This document shows, piece by piece, positions 573 to 62,580 of a DNA stretch of 64,000 bases. The DNA comes from a virus. Location of the stretch: positions 37,203-101,202 of IMG/VR virus record IMGVR_UViG_3300050821_006485. One strand, written 5' to 3'. Numbering within the stretch: position 1 is the stretch's first letter; each line of letters opens with the position of its first letter. The notes under the pieces were generated by a model. It saw only the letters and a list, made by a program, of their open reading frames with translations. It ran no database searches and was not told where the DNA came from. The position numbers were made by a program, and so were the translations under genes.

Positions 573-1300
573 AGTTTCCAATTAGTTTCATAAACCATAG
601 TACGGTAGTTTCCGACGCGGAAGCGAAGATTGTAATGGGCCATTTGCAGACCCAGGTAAGCCGGGATTTCGCTCCGATTTGGGGTGTAGACGCCCAGTTG
701 TTTTTTGTTTCTGCTTCGGGAACTCCTAACCCCGCGTATTGGCAACTCGTGCTCCTAGACGACGCAGACGCGGCGAACGCTCTGGGATACCATGAACTAA
801 CTTCAGCGGGATTACCCCTTGGCAAAGTGTTTGTGAAGACCACGGCGCAAGCTAAGGGCAAGTGGTCGGTAACCGCATCTCACGAATTATTGGAGATGCT
901 GATTGATCCCGATATCAACCTCACGGTGTTCGTTCAGGACTCTAATACTTCGGGCCGTATATACGCCTACGAAGTTTGCGATGCGGTTGAAGACGACAGC
1001 TTGGGCTACAATATATATTCGGCTACGGTGTCCGATTTCGTCACCCCAGCATGGTTCGAAGCGCAGGGCTCGTCTTTAAGTCCTAAGTTTGATTTCATGG
1101 GCCACCTCACTAAACCTTTTGCTCTCGCCTTGAACGGCTACATAGGAATCTTCGACGCGACCGCAGGTACCGGCTGGCAGCAGCTTATGGGTATGCAAGG
1201 CAAGGTCGGGAAGTTCGGAGAGAATAGCAAAGGTGGAGAGGAAGCTAGAAACAAGACGCGTACCATTGGTATGCAGGATCGACGCAGGAGTAAGAAATAA
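569..1300 (+). CDS. Putative zinc metallopeptidase-like protein
   Basis: ALGYH and SHELLEML (HExxE) motifs plus YEVCDAVE; coupled to the endolysin gene. Confidence 0.6.
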   Translation: MKFPISFINHSTVVSDAEAKIVMGHLQTQVSRDFAPIWGVDAQLFFVSASGTPNPAYWQLVLLDDADAANALGYHELTSAGLPLGKVFVKTTAQAKGKWSVTASHELLEMLIDPDINLTVFVQDSNTSGRIYAYEVCDAVEDDSLGYNIYSATVSDFVTPAWFEAQGSSLSPKFDFMGHLTKPFALALNGYIGIFDATAGTGWQQLMGMQGKVGKFGENSKGGEEARNKTRTIGMQDRRRSKK

Positions 1301-1746
1301 TGGGGGCTATCACAAACACCCCAGACCAACTAAAAAGAGACGAAGGGCTACGTTTACAAGTTTACATCGACAGTACCGGCCACCGCAGCATTGGCTACGG
1401 CCACAATATCGACGCTTCGCCGCTTCCCTTTGATGTGTCCAACGGTATAACTTTACAGCAGGCCTACAATATCCTTGACAATGATATAAACGTTACAAGG
1501 GCGGCTATTTATGCCGCGTTGCCTTGGGTACGATCTTTGTCCGAACCTAGATTCGGAGTGGTGGTGAACATGGGCTTTAATCTAGGCGTGCCGGGTTTGC
1601 TAAAATTTCACCACACGTTGGCGGCGCTACAAGCCAGAGATTATGCACTAACCGCAGAGGGTATGAGAAATTCTCTGTGGTACCGACAAGTAGGAGACCG
1701 AGCAAGGAGACTCGTGATACAAATGGAGACAGATAGATGGCAGTAA
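1300..1746 (+). CDS. Endolysin, T4-lysozyme-like (GH24)
   Basis: DEGLRLQVYIDSTGHRSIGYGH catalytic region, NMGFNLG, SLWYRQVGDRA. Confidence 0.92.
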   Translation: MGAITNTPDQLKRDEGLRLQVYIDSTGHRSIGYGHNIDASPLPFDVSNGITLQQAYNILDNDINVTRAAIYAALPWVRSLSEPRFGVVVNMGFNLGVPGLLKFHHTLAALQARDYALTAEGMRNSLWYRQVGDRARRLVIQMETDRWQ

Positions 1747-18386: not shown

Positions 18387-19439
18387 ATGCCAACACTTGA
18401 TTCATTATTGGGTACCGCATCAAACTTTGATGTACTTGCGGGCTCTACGGTTACAAACTCTGGAGCAACTGTTCTTACTGGAGGTGATCTAGGTCTTTCT
18501 CCTGGTTCATCTGTAACGGGCTTTCCGCCAGGCGTAGTTACTCCTCCTAATGTACAGCACATTACCGATTCTGTCGCAGCCAAGGGTCAATCCGACCTTA
18601 CTGCCGCATATACGTACTTTGCCGGATTAGCCGGAGCTACGCCTATCGTTGGAAACTTAAACGGTCAAACATTTGTTCCCGGTTTGTATAGCGGCGGCGC
18701 GATTGATCTGGCAGTAGGTGGAACCGTAACCCTTAACGGAAACGGCGACCCAACTGCGGAATTTATTTTCCAAGCCGCGTCCACTCTTACCTTCAACAAC
18801 GGTTCTACTGTTGTCCTTACAAATGGTGCAACCGCCAAAAACATTATATGGCAAGTTGGAAGCTCTGCAACCATCGGAACCACGGCGGTTGTTTCTGGGG
18901 ACATCGTGGCGCTGACTTCAATTTCCGTGAACACCGGGGCCACGGTCAACGGCAGATTACTCGCCAGAAACGGCGCGGTGACGTTGAGTGGTAACACTGT
19001 TACTGCCCCGGCAACTGGCGCGGGAACGGGTACGGGAGGTGGCGTAGTAGCGATAGGCACATCCTCAGCGAGTGCCACGGTGACGCTAAGCGAACTCACA
19101 CACCCAGATATTACAGGAAAAAGTTTAAGATCATGGGGAGTGGTGACTATTAATCCTGGAGGTTACACAAGCGGAGGAATTCCGTTCGGATTGATGCAGT
19201 ACGCGGACCAACGTACGGTGGATTTTAATGGGTTCTTGCGTTGTGAGGTCTACGGCGAGGAACCTAAGAACAACATCATATTGGCAACTATTGCATACCG
19301 TTATACCCCAGTCACAGATTCTCTCCAGATTTTTAATAACGGGGTAGAACTTGCCGGGGGCTCTGCTATACCAGTCTCTGTGTTATCTGACACCTTGCTT
19401 TTTGAGGCACAGTGGGATCGCACTAGCGTAAGAGGATAA
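18387..19439 (+). CDS. Ice-binding protein (DUF3494) fused to a C-terminal virion-type domain
   Basis: LGTASNFDVLAGSTVTN, GDLGLSPG, DLTAAY, FIFQAASTL, NIIWQVGSSATIG, GRLLARNGAVTL. Confidence 0.9.
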   Translation: MPTLDSLLGTASNFDVLAGSTVTNSGATVLTGGDLGLSPGSSVTGFPPGVVTPPNVQHITDSVAAKGQSDLTAAYTYFAGLAGATPIVGNLNGQTFVPGLYSGGAIDLAVGGTVTLNGNGDPTAEFIFQAASTLTFNNGSTVVLTNGATAKNIIWQVGSSATIGTTAVVSGDIVALTSISVNTGATVNGRLLARNGAVTLSGNTVTAPATGAGTGTGGGVVAIGTSSASATVTLSELTHPDITGKSLRSWGVVTINPGGYTSGGIPFGLMQYADQRTVDFNGFLRCEVYGEEPKNNIILATIAYRYTPVTDSLQIFNNGVELAGGSAIPVSVLSDTLLFEAQWDRTSVRG

Positions 19440-19453
19440 TTCAACAACAATTT

Positions 19454-19530
19454 CCTGAGATTAATTACCTCAGGCAGCCGTGGGGAATGCCTACCTATGC
19501 ATGGGCATTCTCCGCGCATCTTCATAGGAG
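19454..19530 (+). promoter_or_regulatory. Hairpin plus SD-sequestering pseudoknot leader (copy 1)
   Basis: CCTGAG/CTCAGG hairpin; 15-bp stem with loop CCTATG pairing CATAGG over the SD AGGAG. Confidence 0.7.
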
Positions 19531-19537
19531 AAAAATA

Positions 19538-20191
19538 ATGCCGCATCATAAGAATACACATTGTAAGCATGGACATGAGTACACGGTAGAAAATACAAGG
19601 ATATTACCTAACGGGGCAAGAGTTTGTCGAGCATGTAAGCGTGAATGGGCAAGAGAAAACACGGGATTAGAAGAGGGGGAAGTAAAGCAAAATAAAAATC
19701 AGAACACTGACAAAACCCATTGTCTTCGTGGTCACGAGTTTACATCGGAAAACACATACATGAAGGGCGAACGTAGGATTTGTATAATTTGTAGGAATGC
19801 CGCCCAGCGCGATAGACAAAGGATTGCAGAAGCAAAATACAGAGCGTTAAAGAAATCCAGCCCTGAATTATGGGAAAAAGAAAGACGAAGAAGAAGGGCA
19901 CAACAACTTAAAAGAGTCGGTTGGAATATTGATCTTTTTGAAGAGACCCTAAACCTGCAAGAAAATAAATGCGCCGTTTGTAGAACTGTTCTAGATATTA
20001 ATGCTATAAAGAACGGCGCTACTAACCAGGCTCATGCTGACCATGAGCACGTAGAGCCTCCAAAGCCTAGAGGTATTTTATGTGGCAATTGTAATTTAGG
20101 CATTGGAAATTTAAAAGAAAACCCAGAAATTATGTTGGCAGCAATTGCCTACGTAACTAAATGGAAGGAAGAGAGGTCGTACGGGCCATAA
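19538..20191 (+). CDS. Free-standing homing endonuclease, endonuclease VII family
   Basis: Two THCxxGHExTxENT modules; QENKCAVC...HADHEH...RGILCGNCNLGIG; ATG 19538 after AGGAG. Confidence 0.85.
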   Translation: MPHHKNTHCKHGHEYTVENTRILPNGARVCRACKREWARENTGLEEGEVKQNKNQNTDKTHCLRGHEFTSENTYMKGERRICIICRNAAQRDRQRIAEAKYRALKKSSPELWEKERRRRRAQQLKRVGWNIDLFEETLNLQENKCAVCRTVLDINAIKNGATNQAHADHEHVEPPKPRGILCGNCNLGIGNLKENPEIMLAAIAYVTKWKEERSYGP

Positions 20192-21491
20192 TTTATCGCA
20201 GTTAGGTAAGTAATTGCCTCATCAATCAGCAATGATTGTTTGTAACCTAGAGAATTCGGTGGAACACCCGATAGGGTCAATACCGAGCCGAGCCCAGAAA
20301 TGGGAAGGTGTAACGACTATCTCGAAAGAGAGTAGGGAACAGCGTTCCCGAAGCACTAGGGGTCCTGCAAAGGGATCAAGATATAGTCTGGACTTATTAG
20401 TAATAATAAGAGAGTAAGCGGACGCGGCTTATTTGTAACAATAATCGACAGCATCATTAGACGCCTTTTCTGGATTAATCACCATAGCCGATGCAGTGGA
20501 CCTCCCTGAAGGCGCGAGTCCTAGAAATTGGGACGTTCAGTTTAACGTAGGTAGCGTACGCACCAGGTCCGGTTTATTGAGCGTGTACTCTTACGCGACC
20601 ACATTAATAATCACTTCCTATGTTCTTCATTACGGTATAGCAGTGTTTGGGTATACTGGCGTAGAACCAACGGTTAATGAGGGGTTTTTGTTGTCCGGTT
20701 TTATAAACAACCTTTCATATCTGAATGGCCTCCAGGTATTTGTCGTTTCCGCGACAGCAACAACCTTCTCGGTTTTCTTGCCATTTAAGGACGACGGTCC
20801 ATTTTTCAATCTCACAGGTTCTGCGGTCTCCCTTTCAGGCGCATTCGCTGGGCCTAACCTAGGCAACACCGTAACTTCCACCGGGTGGACCAACCCCAGT
20901 GGAATCCTAGGTAACGTTTCTTACGCCTCGGCAGTCGGTGGCGCAGCCTTATCAGCAACAATGGTTCCTACGGCGGCAGGAAATGAGTCGTCTAGTAATC
21001 CGGCGTGGACCGCCCCTGGCAACGTATACACTACCGGCTCGGCATTCGCCCAAGTTACTCTATCTATCGCCGCAGGTGGTGGCGGAGGGGGCGGTGGTGG
21101 TGGCGGGGGTGGAGGTGGAGGGGGTGGCGGCGGAGGCGGTTGCTTCTCCGCAGCGGTTTCCGTTCGTACCCCAGAAGGTCTTATCGAGCTGGGAAATGCG
21201 CCCGGCACTCTCCAAGTTTCTAACGAAACCGGTACGCATAGTGCGCGGCTTATCGTTCACAAGGATTACAAAGGTTGGATGGTGGTAATCGAAGAGGATA
21301 AGCTTGTCACCATAGATCACGTTATGAGGTCCGGGGATAAATGGGAACCGGCTGGGCTTAAATATCACAATCTACGCCGAGTCTGGTTCGTGGGTACGGT
21401 CTTCGATTTACACGTTATCTCCGATAATGAGGCAGATCATCACTACATACTGTGGAACGGTGACATAGCCCATAACAAACAACTAAAATAG
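20181..21491 (+). CDS. Tail nozzle/stabilisation-like protein, N-terminal part (spliced: 20181-20207 joined to 20448-21491), ending in Gly22 and a Hint domain
   Basis: Spliced frame reads (M)GHNLSQLG|TASLDAFSGLITIADAVDLPEGASPRNWDV; start inferred at ACG after GAGG; ORF caller starts at 20496. Confidence 0.65.
20208..20447 (+). ncRNA. Group I intron (IA-like, no internal ORF)
   Basis: P1 AGGT|AA-GTAA-TTGCCT with U.G at the splice site; P3 CCTAG/CTAGG; P4 TTCGGT/ACCGAG; R GTAACGACTA; P7.1 and P7.2 hairpins; S AAGATATAGTCT; P9; terminal G20447. Confidence 0.9.
21141..21476 (+). other. Hint (intein-like, BIL-type) autoprocessing domain
   Basis: Block A CFSAAVSVRTPEG, block B VTIDH (TxxH), block F VFDLHV, terminal AHN followed by K rather than C/S/T. 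Confidence 0.85.
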
Positions 21492-25848: not shown

Positions 25849-26478
25849 ATGATAGTATATTTAGTAACAAACAAACATAACGGAAAACAATATGTAGGGC
25901 AGACCGTAAAACCTCTTCAAACTAGATGGGCGCAGCATGGGAATGACACTTCTCATGTATCTCTCTTACGCAACGCTTTGAAAAAGTATGGAACAAATTC
26001 TTTCGTAATAGAAATTATCCATGAATGTCTGCATAAAGAAGAAATGGATTTTGTAGAAATATTCTACATTTCATTTTTGAATACTAAATCTCCTAATGGT
26101 TATAATTTAACAGACGGGGGAGAGGGAAGTTTAGGGCATACGCCTACAAAAGAAGCAAGAGTTAAAATGAGTTTGGCTAAGAAAGGATTACTACCGCCAA
26201 AGCCCATAAAAAGGGGACAAAGGTTATCCCCGAGTACAGAAATTAAAAAGGGACAAAGATTATCTCCTAGTACTGAATTTAAAGCCGGATTTATTCCTTG
26301 GAATAAAGGTAAGTCGCATCTAAAAGGGGCGCTTAATCCTTTTTACCACAAAAAACATTCTCCCGAAGCTTTACAAAAAATGCGACTAGCTAAACTCGGT
26401 AGAAAGCAATCTCCAGAACATGTAGCTAAGAGAATGGCCAGTATATTAAAAAGGAAGGAACTAGATGGCTCACGGTGA
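25849..26478 (+). CDS. GIY-YIG homing endonuclease with NUMOD3-like repeats
   Basis: IVYLVTN...YVGQT...RW, E, GYNLTDGGEG; KGQRLSPSTE twice; HSPEALQKM. Confidence 0.9.
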   Translation: MIVYLVTNKHNGKQYVGQTVKPLQTRWAQHGNDTSHVSLLRNALKKYGTNSFVIEIIHECLHKEEMDFVEIFYISFLNTKSPNGYNLTDGGEGSLGHTPTKEARVKMSLAKKGLLPPKPIKRGQRLSPSTEIKKGQRLSPSTEFKAGFIPWNKGKSHLKGALNPFYHKKHSPEALQKMRLAKLGRKQSPEHVAKRMASILKRKELDGSR

Positions 26479-36943: not shown

Positions 36944-37919
36944 GTTTTTTCTACTAGCCTGTGTACTTTCTATATGTGCGGCGGGGCAAACTCCGACGCC
37001 GATTCGTGCCGTTACTACATTGCCCGCAACTTGCAAAGGAGGCAGCGCTACGGCTTCGACCGATGTGGTGTTTTTGATAACCGGAACATCGGGGGAGTTT
37101 TACAGGTGCTGGGCTTCCAATACGTGGGTTGTCATGGGTACCATGCCGTCTGACGGTGTACATGCCGGATCGGTACAACTAGGAGGCAATACTACACCCC
37201 CAGTTTTGAACTCTAATATTTTTGCTTGGATTGGCCCTAATTCCAGTTCTTTTACCTCCTGGGGCATAGAGATGCCAAGTGCTGAGCCCTCCGGCACGGT
37301 TCTTTTGGCTGTAGGCGCGGCGTCTTCTCATGTGTCTCAAGGGTCATTACTTGCGTTGCAGGGCACGGGAGCCAGCGTACAAACCGCCGGAACCGTCGCT
37401 GCCTCACAGCGTGCCGTTTGCACAGACGGAAACGCAGCGACAACTACATCTTGTCCTAAAAATGTTATGGTTTTATTTGTAACCGCCGATCAAGTTATAA
37501 GTACTACGTCCTTAAATTCAATTCCTGGATTAAGCGCAACTATTACTTCTGCTGTCCCTTCTGTTGTCTCTATGGACTGTGACATTATGTACAGCCAGCA
37601 AACATCGGCTGTAGCCGATAATTTTGGGATATCCGATACCTCTGCCCCAACTAACATAAATGCGCAAGCATCAGAAGGTACCAACTTAAACGGAGGCGGT
37701 CGAGTTGAGAGTAACATAATTGGGTTAACAACAACTGTGGCCACCAGCTTTGCTAATTTTACTCCGGCTGCTACTAATGTCGTATACAACACTCAAATTC
37801 ATATTTTGGCTGAACAACCGGCTTCTACGGCGGCCCTTAGTATTCTAGTATCGACCGGGAATGCTTCCGACTCGATTACGATTAAGCGTGGTAGCAAGTG
37901 CGTGGTAAATTTCCAGTAA
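36909..37919 (+). CDS. Fibre-like protein with predicted signal peptide
   Basis: KFFLLACVLSICAAG-QT; TTLPATC...FYRCWASNTW; ITIKRGSKC end. Confidence 0.65.
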   Translation: MRTGLSFLQTAKFFLLACVLSICAAGQTPTPIRAVTTLPATCKGGSATASTDVVFLITGTSGEFYRCWASNTWVVMGTMPSDGVHAGSVQLGGNTTPPVLNSNIFAWIGPNSSSFTSWGIEMPSAEPSGTVLLAVGAASSHVSQGSLLALQGTGASVQTAGTVAASQRAVCTDGNAATTTSCPKNVMVLFVTADQVISTTSLNSIPGLSATITSAVPSVVSMDCDIMYSQQTSAVADNFGISDTSAPTNINAQASEGTNLNGGGRVESNIIGLTTTVATSFANFTPAATNVVYNTQIHILAEQPASTAALSILVSTGNASDSITIKRGSKCVVNFQ

Positions 37920-59816: not shown

Positions 59817-59892
59817 TGGTGGGCCTGCTTGGACTCGAACCAAGAACCTACGGATTATGAGTCCGCTGCTCTGCCAATTGAGCTACAGGCCC
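59817..59892 (-). tRNA. tRNA with CAU anticodon, most likely tRNA-Ile2 (lysidine type)
   Basis: GGGCCTGTAGCTCAATTGGCAGAGCAGCGGACTCATAATCCGTAGGTTCTTGGTTCGAGTCCAAGCAGGCCCACCA; full cloverleaf, encoded CCA, ileX-like anticodon arm. Confidence 0.92.
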
Positions 59893-62250: not shown

Positions 62251-62580
62251 GGTAGAGAGGCCTTGCGACCCCTCACCCTTCGACCGCTTTAGGCGGCCAT
62301 AGCTAGCTCGTTAGAGTTGGCTTGTTTTGTTTCGTGTCCTGATTACGCTGGCCACGACATCGCGGGATTGTCCACTGCTGTCTCATCGTCGCCGTCGAAT
62401 CCTTTCACGCCCGTCAAAGCCACCATTCAGTCGAGAATTATAGTTCACTACCCCTGCCGGGGGGTGCTATTCCGCGAGACCCGCTGAAAGGCTCTCGGTA
62501 TTCATCATGGTGGCTATGGTGGACGTGGCGGCATCGAAGCCGCGTCCGACAACCCGGATAACAGTTTCATACAACCATAA
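62251..62580 (-). ncRNA. ssrA: Circularly permuted (two-piece) tmRNA: acceptor piece ~62580-62517, intervening segment 62516-62413, coding piece 62412-~62251
   Basis: 5' end GGGCGTG-AAA-GGATTCGAC; 3' end GGAC-GCGGC-TTCGAT-GCCGC-CACGTCC-ACCA lies upstream of it; 7-bp acceptor stem with G3.U70; tag 62321-62289 ANSNELAMAA*. Confidence 0.9.

Follow-up and report, generated by a model that had tools for sequence, protein, structure and literature searches.

Group I introns in phage tail and capsid genes are known, as are pairs formed by such an intron and a free-standing homing endonuclease. Here, we describe a locus of a soil phage, contained in the 101,202-bp IMG/VR virus record IMGVR_UViG_3300050821_006485, of which the 64,000 nt from base 37203 to base 101202 were analysed (hereafter the window). 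A putative tail gene in the window is interrupted after its ninth codon by a small group I intron without an open reading frame (ORF), has ACG at the position of its start codon and is overlapped by a free-standing endonuclease gene. In comparison to the described systems, it is new that the intron is positioned within the first ten codons, that the endonuclease gene overlaps the start of its putative target and that a near-cognate start codon linked to the endonuclease flank recurs. The overall best explanation, which we hold to be likely, is an IA-type intron between codons 9 and 10, combined with an ACG start that is directed by a Shine-Dalgarno (SD) sequence as well as linked to the endonuclease.

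In cyanophage S-PM2, the free-standing endonuclease F-CphI, encoded beside the ORF-less intron of psbA, cleaves the allele that lacks this intron, a layout termed collaborative homing (Zeng, Bonocora and Shub 2009, as cited in PMC6083498 and PMC3984707). As in this system, an endonuclease with a C-terminal EndoVII motif is encoded outside the intron and adjoins a gene with a small ORF-less group I intron, and both elements are distributed independently among relatives. Unlike in S-PM2, the endonuclease gene lies upstream and overlaps the first four codons of the target, the host is a tail gene, the intron is found 27 nt from the start and the start codon is near-cognate; cleavage of the intron-less allele, known for F-CphI, is putative here.

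In phage T4, mobE encodes a free-standing HNH endonuclease between nrdA and nrdB, which mediates trans-homing of the neighbouring nrdB intron, the own genome being spared by polymorphisms (PMC2790892). Both loci feature a free-standing nuclease gene just upstream of the intron-containing gene and an intron without a working nuclease. The nrdB intron differs in that it retains a defunct I-TevIII ORF, its target belongs to nucleotide metabolism and no change of the start codon is involved.

In Cluster J mycobacteriophages, which also carry many free-standing HNH genes, capsid and minor tail genes are interrupted by group I introns, and splicing of these was shown by reverse transcription PCR (PMC3706429). 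The location in a virion structural gene is shared with the present intron; however, the Cluster J introns are interior and not in the first ten codons, their host genes have canonical starts and their splicing is demonstrated, whereas it is predicted here. An initial model-based reading of the sequence (hereafter the first-pass annotation) had presented the host gene as unusual for a phage group I intron; with capsid and tail gene introns already documented, it is less so than implied.

The intron is also comparable to phage introns of subgroup IA2 (T4 td/nrdB/sunY type and the DNA polymerase intron of Pf-WMP3, PMC3428280), with which it shares the compact core with P7.1 and P7.2, the splice-site U.G pair, the omega-G and an early in-frame stop codon. 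It deviates from them by the lack of an endonuclease ORF in a loop, an almost absent P10 and the tail gene as host.

Near-cognate initiation in bacteria is known from the AUU start codon of infC. Like this codon and those in an E. coli survey, the start codon described here is one base away from AUG, stands behind an SD sequence and lies at the N-terminus of a conserved protein. Unlike in infC, it is not known to serve autoregulation, its identity varies among alleles (ACG, AUC, AUA, AUU) and a mobile endonuclease gene is linked to it. Initiation in E. coli reaches about 1–2% of the AUG level at AUA, AUC and AUU and 0.1–1% at other codons, and in the same survey of all 64 codons an N-terminal methionine was shown by mass spectrometry for an ACG construct (bioRxiv 10.1101/063800). 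Our literature search for ACG start codons in phages yielded no phage or bacterial case.

Structure and conservation of the intron

Positions 20198–20410 of the plus strand match Rfam model RF00028 over its full length (1–253) with 57.8 bits (gathering score 50, E 4.6e-12). The same match was recovered in an Rfam search of the whole genome, which yielded five group I introns above threshold, only that at 20208–20447 falling inside the window. Judged from its sequence and predicted fold, 20208–20447 is a group I intron of the self-splicing type. It was assigned to subgroup IA because P7.1 and P7.2 hairpins are present between P7 and P3' (Table 1). The 5' splice site is a U20207.G20216 pair inside P1 (AGGUAA/UUGCCU), omega-G is G20447, the final base of the intron, and at most one base pair is possible in P10.

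Scanning viral and metagenome contigs provided a comparative set of 126 loci. Seven of these (L015, L023, L034, L036, L037, L050, L079) have introns, confirmed by Rfam, at the identical site; all seven follow ...GGT and finish in ...G before (A/T)CAGC. Alignment of the eight introns supports 13 helices, with 98.9% of the cells paired. Compensatory changes on both sides occur in 36 of the 71 pairs, compared to 3–6 when the 3' partners were slid, and the observed score was reached by none of 500 shuffles. P1 covaries with the exon: AGGU pairs with GCCU in the window, GGGU with GCCC in five loci and CGGU with GCCG in two. While the splice-site U.G pair is invariant in all eight introns, the neighbouring P1 pair is A-U, G-C or C-G. 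Compensatory changes are also present in both P7.1 and P7.2; P7 itself is invariant and hence uninformative either way.

A stop codon in the exon frame occurs within the first two intron codons in eight of eight introns, a feature recorded for many bacterial group I introns (PMC3984707). A 67-aa frame beginning with TTG (20214–20417) overlies the ribozyme core. Since it is not kept in the seven related introns, where the longest open stretches span 33–57 aa, the designation as ORF-less stands. Together, Rfam score and covariation bear out the complete IA-like core within 240 nt that the first-pass annotation had recognised, and its descriptions of the intron as ORF-less and of P10 as weak hold as well.

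Over 43–155 nt, the intron core shows 71–93% identity to stretches of DNA polymerase genes from Ralstonia, Vibrio and other phages. About 17 kb before the window, a different gene of the same genome contains a sibling intron (L002:1516–1748), which is 90.6% identical to the window intron and shares with it an exact block of 137 nt (window 20304–20440), with different P1 and guide bases. As the intron core is repeated in the genome, contigs of the Logan assembly break inside the intron.

Spliced product and putative function of the interrupted gene

Exon 1 reads ACG GGC CAT AAT TTA TCG CAG TTA GGT (20181–20207), and exon 2 opens at 20448 with ACA GCA TCA TTA GAC, sharing the frame of the ORF for which gene finders choose GTG 20496 as the start. 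Removal of 20208–20447 fuses TGHNLSQLG to TASLDAFSG in frame. The predicted junction is CAGTTAGGT joined to ACAGCATCA (20207/20448), and the product of splicing and ACG initiation would begin with (M)GHNLSQLGTASLD.

A search of 5.8 billion proteins returned 11 relatives of the exon-2 product. Five homologues (P0002, P0003, P0004, P0006, P0008) begin with MGH(N/S/T)L..LG(T/S)A(S/A)LD, and dozens of loci encode M/L/V-G-H-N-L-x-x-L-G-(T/S)-A-S-L-D. In the intron-less locus L006, AAGGAGAACCC is followed by ATG GGA CAC AAT CTG AAA GCG CTC GGC AGC GCG AGC TTG GAT. The spliced product of the window, (M/T)GHNLSQLG-TASLD, fits the family consensus residue by residue. This agreement with intron-less homologues pins down both the junction 20207/20448 and the start position 20181 without recourse to the RNA model. 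It confirms the in-frame joining of the exons read earlier from the sequence and places ACG at the start position of the family.

A profile built from 18 N-termini matches residues 13–77 of PDB entry 9k09_U, 'Tail tubular protein B', with a marginal E value of 0.0065; the motif common to both is FGGL..LA.P..P...SP....D..G.V..R.G. A PDB profile search with a longer alignment (A1) gave no match. Searches of Pfam and PHROGs with the window tail protein, its homologues and seven relatives of more than 1000 aa returned nothing clear, and nothing clear on the function of the tail protein was obtained by tblastn against 50,697 phage records or from Atlas (scores of 0.87 or below only). AlphaFold2 predicted a confident beta-barrel for residues 50–130 of the exon-2 product and no order for its first 48 residues. 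In Foldseek, no match at E ≤ 0.001 was found, and residues 50–130 drew only generic beta-barrels (E1 FCCH, F1-ATPase N-terminal domain). Distant relatives in contigs of about 45 kb exceed 1050 aa, and the C-terminal parts differ among homologues. It is likely, but not proven, that the interrupted gene is a phage tail gene, the encoded N-terminus of which may resemble that of tail tubular protein B of podoviruses. The marginal 9k09_U match thereby lends weak support to its first-pass description as a virion gene.

In the window, a run of about 22 glycines is followed by a Hint-like domain of about 110 aa (21066–21491), which starts with C-F-S, ends with H-N and is followed by KQLK-stop. Its sole Pfam match is Vint, far below the cut-off (E 0.09). 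An ORF of 1421 aa begins 12 nt after the tail ORF.

Two other entries of the family, P0012 and L073:1–60, begin with the 3' tail of the intron, mistranslated by gene callers as an N-terminus (VGNYKRENGNDFLATQL-TASLD). Database entries of the tail family can hold intron-derived residues, and annotators should be aware that callers start the tail gene either at GTG 20496 or in intron tails, as in P0012, losing the conserved N-terminus.

The probable ACG start codon of the tail gene

A TAA at 20154–20156 closes the exon-1 frame, in which no ATG, GTG or TTG occurs between this stop codon and ACG 20181. GAGGT is located at 20173–20177, where related alleles carry AAGGAGGG or GGAAGGAAGGG at the matching place. 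The endonuclease ORF ends with TCG TAC GGG CCA TAA, which makes C20182 the third base of a tyrosine codon, at which C or T is silent. All of these features are as the first-pass annotation had given them: the stop codon with no canonical start behind it, ACG following GAGGT and overlapping the end of the endonuclease gene, and the silent exchange of ACG and ATG there. The alignment to the starts of homologues, the conservation from codon 2 onward, the absence of a canonical start and the upstream SD sequence argue for a near-cognate start codon, and the best-supported reading of the mechanism is ordinary SD-directed initiation at ACG.

Concern about C20182 at the level of reads had been raised as well. 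The Logan assembly of run X1, the probable source sample, contains a 22.9-kb contig without any difference over 19400–20332 at a depth of about 21, including the same C, which rules out an assembler slip. A second run from another study (X2) covers 20250–20477, with the start codon outside of this range.

Near-cognate start codons in related loci

At the aligned start position, most loci carry ATG, TTG or GTG behind AGGAGG. Twelve further distinct alleles feature a codon one base away from ATG: ATC in L009, L029, L034, L041, L080 and L086, ATA in L047 and L054, ATT in L060 and ACG in L017, L048 and L056. Codons 2–9 are conserved in all twelve (G-H/N-x-L-x-x-L/M/V-G), the upstream frame is closed 12–36 nt before the start with no canonical start codon in between, and a strong SD sequence (AAGGAGGG or GGAAGGAAGGG) is positioned 8–10 nt upstream. 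Eight of the twelve lack an intron, so that intron and odd start are not coupled. The unusual start had previously been regarded as a feature of the intron-split gene of this genome; the ACG itself is confirmed, whereas its recurrence in twelve other alleles, mostly intron-less, speaks against such a restriction.

Near-cognate starts are linked to the endonuclease flank. They occur in 10 of the 22 loci with an intact adjacent endonuclease gene (window included) compared to none of the 46 without (Fisher p 2e-6, relatedness ignored), and the remaining three (L029, L034, L048) adjoin an endonuclease remnant. Where a near-cognate allele is intron-less and has an intact endonuclease gene, the end of this gene (..KWKEG-stop) is followed by four bases and then by the start codon. 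The window has the same ten bases without the stop codon, and its endonuclease ORF continues to the TAA within CAT AAT.

In a tree of tail-protein residues 45–200, near-cognate alleles are found in at least five clades, beside ATG and TTG alleles. Such scatter is as expected from co-conversion of the endonuclease flank during homing, with repeated origin as the alternative. L009 (ATC) and L017 (ACG) have identical flanks with codons differing at two positions, so direct derivation of one from the other is unlikely. From these comparisons, the weak start codon is best read as part of the 3' flank of the endonuclease gene, with which it would spread or persist.

In the remnants L029:2900–2976, L034:2650–2735 and L048:1000–1090, only the last few endonuclease codons are left (e.g. 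..EYLEKWKEG-stop) and the near-cognate start is retained. They look like scars of lost endonuclease genes.

The upstream endonuclease gene

The product of the endonuclease gene matches PHROG families of HNH endonucleases and endonuclease VII with E values down to 2.9e-21. It contains two N-terminal THC-x-GHE(Y/F)T-x-ENT repeats and a C-terminal EndoVII/DHHRN motif (CAVC ... DHEH ... PRGILCGNCN, residues ~162–202 of 234). F-CphI-type (DHHRN) endonucleases are defined by the C-terminal pattern CX2-4C ... DHxH ... R ... CX2C-N (PMC6083498), which we found in the present sequence. The last 11 nt of the gene overlap exon 1 in another frame, with the stop codon inside codons 3–4 of the tail gene.

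Homologues are encoded in the same position in 21 related loci. The gene is optional: it is intact beside the tail-gene start in 22 loci, absent in 46 and reduced to a remnant in 3. All four combinations of endonuclease and intron occur among relatives, and introns are more frequent in loci with the adjacent endonuclease (9 of 22) than in the others (3 of 49), all insertion sites being located within 120 nt of the end of the endonuclease gene. Based on this distribution, endonuclease and intron are best regarded as separate selfish elements that probably met at this locus to form a pair resembling those of collaborative homing.

Disruptions in the first 40 codons

Among relatives, introns interrupt the first 40 codons of the tail gene at no fewer than five positions, following G9, D14, D27 and D40 and within codon 19. 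The introns after D14, D27 and D40 are all preceded by GGAU and have the guide GUCC, which suggests retargeting of introns to sites that match the guide. In four further distinct loci, a +1 shift at a prfB-like CUU_UGA is required to obtain the consensus N-terminus. A one-off homopolymer error is unlikely for these frameshift alleles because several different metagenomes yield them. In a tree of the endonucleases, copies beside D14 introns form a weakly supported group with the one that adjoins the codon-13/14 frameshift allele.

Introns, start changes and frameshift sites together hint that the conserved 5' coding region is the target of the endonuclease. We tentatively consider, as a possibility that is less likely than not, that the first ~40 codons constitute the recognition site of this clade of free-standing EndoVII-type endonucleases and that carriers protect their own copy by DNA disruptions that spare the protein. 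ACG would then be an immunity mutation acquired via co-conversion and not a means of tuning expression. Three kinds of disruption might, with the same reservation, be undone at the level of RNA or translation: the group I introns, the ACG/ATC/ATA/ATT starts and the one-base insertions at CUU_UGA.

Proposed expression pathway and alternative explanations

According to the likely explanation given above, the tail gene would be transcribed with or just behind the endonuclease gene 19487–20191. The intron would fold, with P1 pairing the exon sequence AGGU (20204–20207) to the guide GCCU (20216–20219), and guanosine-initiated splicing would join U20207 to A20448. Ribosomes held by the SD stretch 20165–20177 would start at ACG 20181 with the initiator tRNA at low efficiency, presumably keeping the protein at a low level, and ribosomes ending the endonuclease ORF 8 nt downstream may contribute. 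The product would have the normal N-terminus of the family, MGHNLSQLG-TASLD.... The weak start may even aid splicing, as a ribosome initiating at 20181 or pausing at TAA 20211–20213 would cover P1 (20204–20219).

A larger role of the endonuclease ORF is conceivable. In the window, its stop codon follows ACG by 8 nt, and in L009, L017, L041, L047, L056, L060 and L080 it precedes the near-cognate codon by 4 nt. The tail protein could be made only by ribosomes that finish the endonuclease ORF (TAA 20189–20191) and re-initiate a few bases upstream, which would make its output dependent on endonuclease translation. For E. coli, re-initiation is an established process that has factor requirements of its own (PMC2268962). 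However, L029, L034 and L048 retain ATC or ACG beside an endonuclease cut down to a few C-terminal codons, so coupling cannot be the whole story. In addition, a strong, well-spaced SD sequence is kept in all these alleles, which suits de novo initiation, and accurate re-initiation in E. coli still needs initiator tRNA, IF2 and IF3 (PMC2268962). We therefore regard exclusive coupling as rather unlikely. A fusion of endonuclease and tail protein via a +1 ribosomal frameshift near the endonuclease stop has next to no probability. The tail frame corresponds to the endonuclease frame +1 in all loci and GGG TAA C follows an SD-like run in some alleles, but the codon before the stop is not conserved as slippery (GGG, GGT or GAA, and CCA in the window), remnant-only alleles keep the same arrangement and alleles with TTG or GTG starts show the same frame relation with no need for a shift. 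Both this fusion and a -1 shift from the ATG inside AAATGG (20161) were rejected for want of a conserved slippery site.

No canonical start precedes GTG 20496 in the exon-2 frame. Were this GTG used, 'exon 1' and the intron would form an untranslated leader, and the protein would not depend on splicing. This start would drop 25 residues conserved in the family (start position counted), including the near-invariant L13 and the invariant G18 of the FGGL motif; moreover, it is not conserved itself, aligning with R/Q/K codons in homologues, and no SD sequence precedes it (preceding bases ATCACCATAGCCGATGCA). The exact match of exon-1 codons 2–9 to the family consensus would also be unexpected for an untranslated region. 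On the grounds of conservation, the GTG start was rejected as highly improbable. It is even harder to believe that C20182 lacks biological meaning, whether as an error or as a deleterious change that ATG underwent recently in a defective genome. ACG and ATG are a single silent step apart in the endonuclease frame and the sequence is a metagenome assembly; against this stand the same base from a second assembler and the occurrence of ACG or ATH at the same codon in twelve other alleles from different metagenomes.

Several observations weigh against SD-directed ACG initiation in an intron-containing, endonuclease-linked tail gene. The spacing between GAGG and ACG is short (4 nt), and ACG ranks among the poorest near-cognate starts in E. 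coli. Run X1 probably represents the same sample, and a low-fitness majority variant at 20182 would pass the check made with it. The association counts are not phylogenetically independent, and relatedness is disregarded in the Fisher values (2e-6 and 2e-4). The basis of the tail assignment is the marginal profile match (E 0.0065) together with gene size and modularity. Finally, the record is a metagenomic virus contig of 91% completeness according to CheckV, and positions 19900–20800 of the window were not found in any RNA run in a run search.

Genomic setting

The intron is surrounded by large ORFs that match no family, by genes resembling those of glycosyltransferases and by three endonuclease genes that are free-standing. 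A second free-standing homing-endonuclease gene, of the GIY-YIG + NUMOD3 type (25849–26478), lies directly 3' of the 1421-aa ORF. The window also encodes a permuted transfer-messenger RNA (62289–62576, minus strand, 82.4 bits) and a tRNA (59820–59892, minus strand). Distant relatives sharing the N-terminal motif (L133–L136) reside on contigs of 17–63 kb that were binned to metagenome-assembled genomes of Acidobacteriota (Acidobacteriaceae, Granulicella, Terracidiphilus, Terriglobales), which is a weak hint at the host group.

Table 1 Features of the locus and of related loci (positions refer to the window unless a locus is named)
Feature	Position	Strand	Basis or remark
Free-standing homing-endonuclease gene, 234 aa	19487..20191	+	Pfam PF02945 Endonuclease_7, E 4.9e-12, residues 152-224
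Purine-rich SD-like stretch AAGGAAGAGAGGT (GAGG 20173-20176)	20165..20177	+	Within the last codons of the endonuclease gene
ACG at the start-codon position of the family, probable near-cognate initiation codon	20181..20183	+	Homologues start ATG/TTG/GTG-GGN-CAY-AAY
Exon 1, nine codons, (M/T)GHNLSQLG	20181..20207	+	Sequence, homologue alignment; ends with U20207
ORF-less group I intron, subgroup IA type, 240 nt	20208..20447	+	Rfam match, 7-intron alignment, covariation
Stop codon TAA of the exon-1 frame, second codon of the intron	20211..20213	+	Would stop ribosomes on unspliced RNA
P1	20204-09/20214-19	+	
P2	20221-28/20233-40	+	
P3	20246-50/20356-60	+	
P4	20256-61/20281-86	+	
P5	20266-69/20274-77	+	
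P6	20287-89/20307-09	+	
P6a	20293-95/20302-04	+	
P7	20315-19/20384-88	+	
P7.1	20320-23/20328-31	+	
P7.2	20335-40/20344-49	+	
P8	20361-65/20373-77	+	
P9	20393-99/20404-10	+	
P9.1	20412-21/20425-34	+	
Exon 2 (TASLDAFSGLITIADAVDLPEGASPRNWDV...)	20448..21491	+	Homologues, N-terminal motif; ends after Gly run and Hint-like domain
GTG, rival start that an ORF finder would choose	20496..20498	+	Judged unlikely
Intron after D14	L086:2731-2990 and L054:2732-2990		Rfam-confirmed
Intron inside codon 19	L053:1650-1890		Rfam-confirmed
Introns after D27 and after D40	L061:987-1240 and 1264-1515		Rfam-confirmed
Shift at codon 5/6	L061:910-960; L035:2970-3005 (duplicate L091); L058:1745-1780 (duplicate L067)		GTG GGC CAC AAT CTT TGA G/C..
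Shift at codon 13/14	L028:635-690		..GCA CTT TGA CAC..

Implications

If the likely explanation is true, an essential virion protein would be produced in an unusual way on two counts, as its message is spliced by a ribozyme after only 27 nt and its translation is initiated at a near-cognate codon. This weak start would then have been inherited with a selfish endonuclease cassette and not have evolved for regulation. The family constitutes a comparative panel, with members that have or lack the endonuclease and the intron, that start with ATG, TTG, GTG, ACG or ATH and that feature five intron sites and two frameshift sites. This panel makes it testable how free-standing homing endonucleases choose their targets and by what means the carriers avoid being cleaved themselves, how introns without an ORF reach new sites and how much near-cognate initiation is tolerable in a late gene of a phage.

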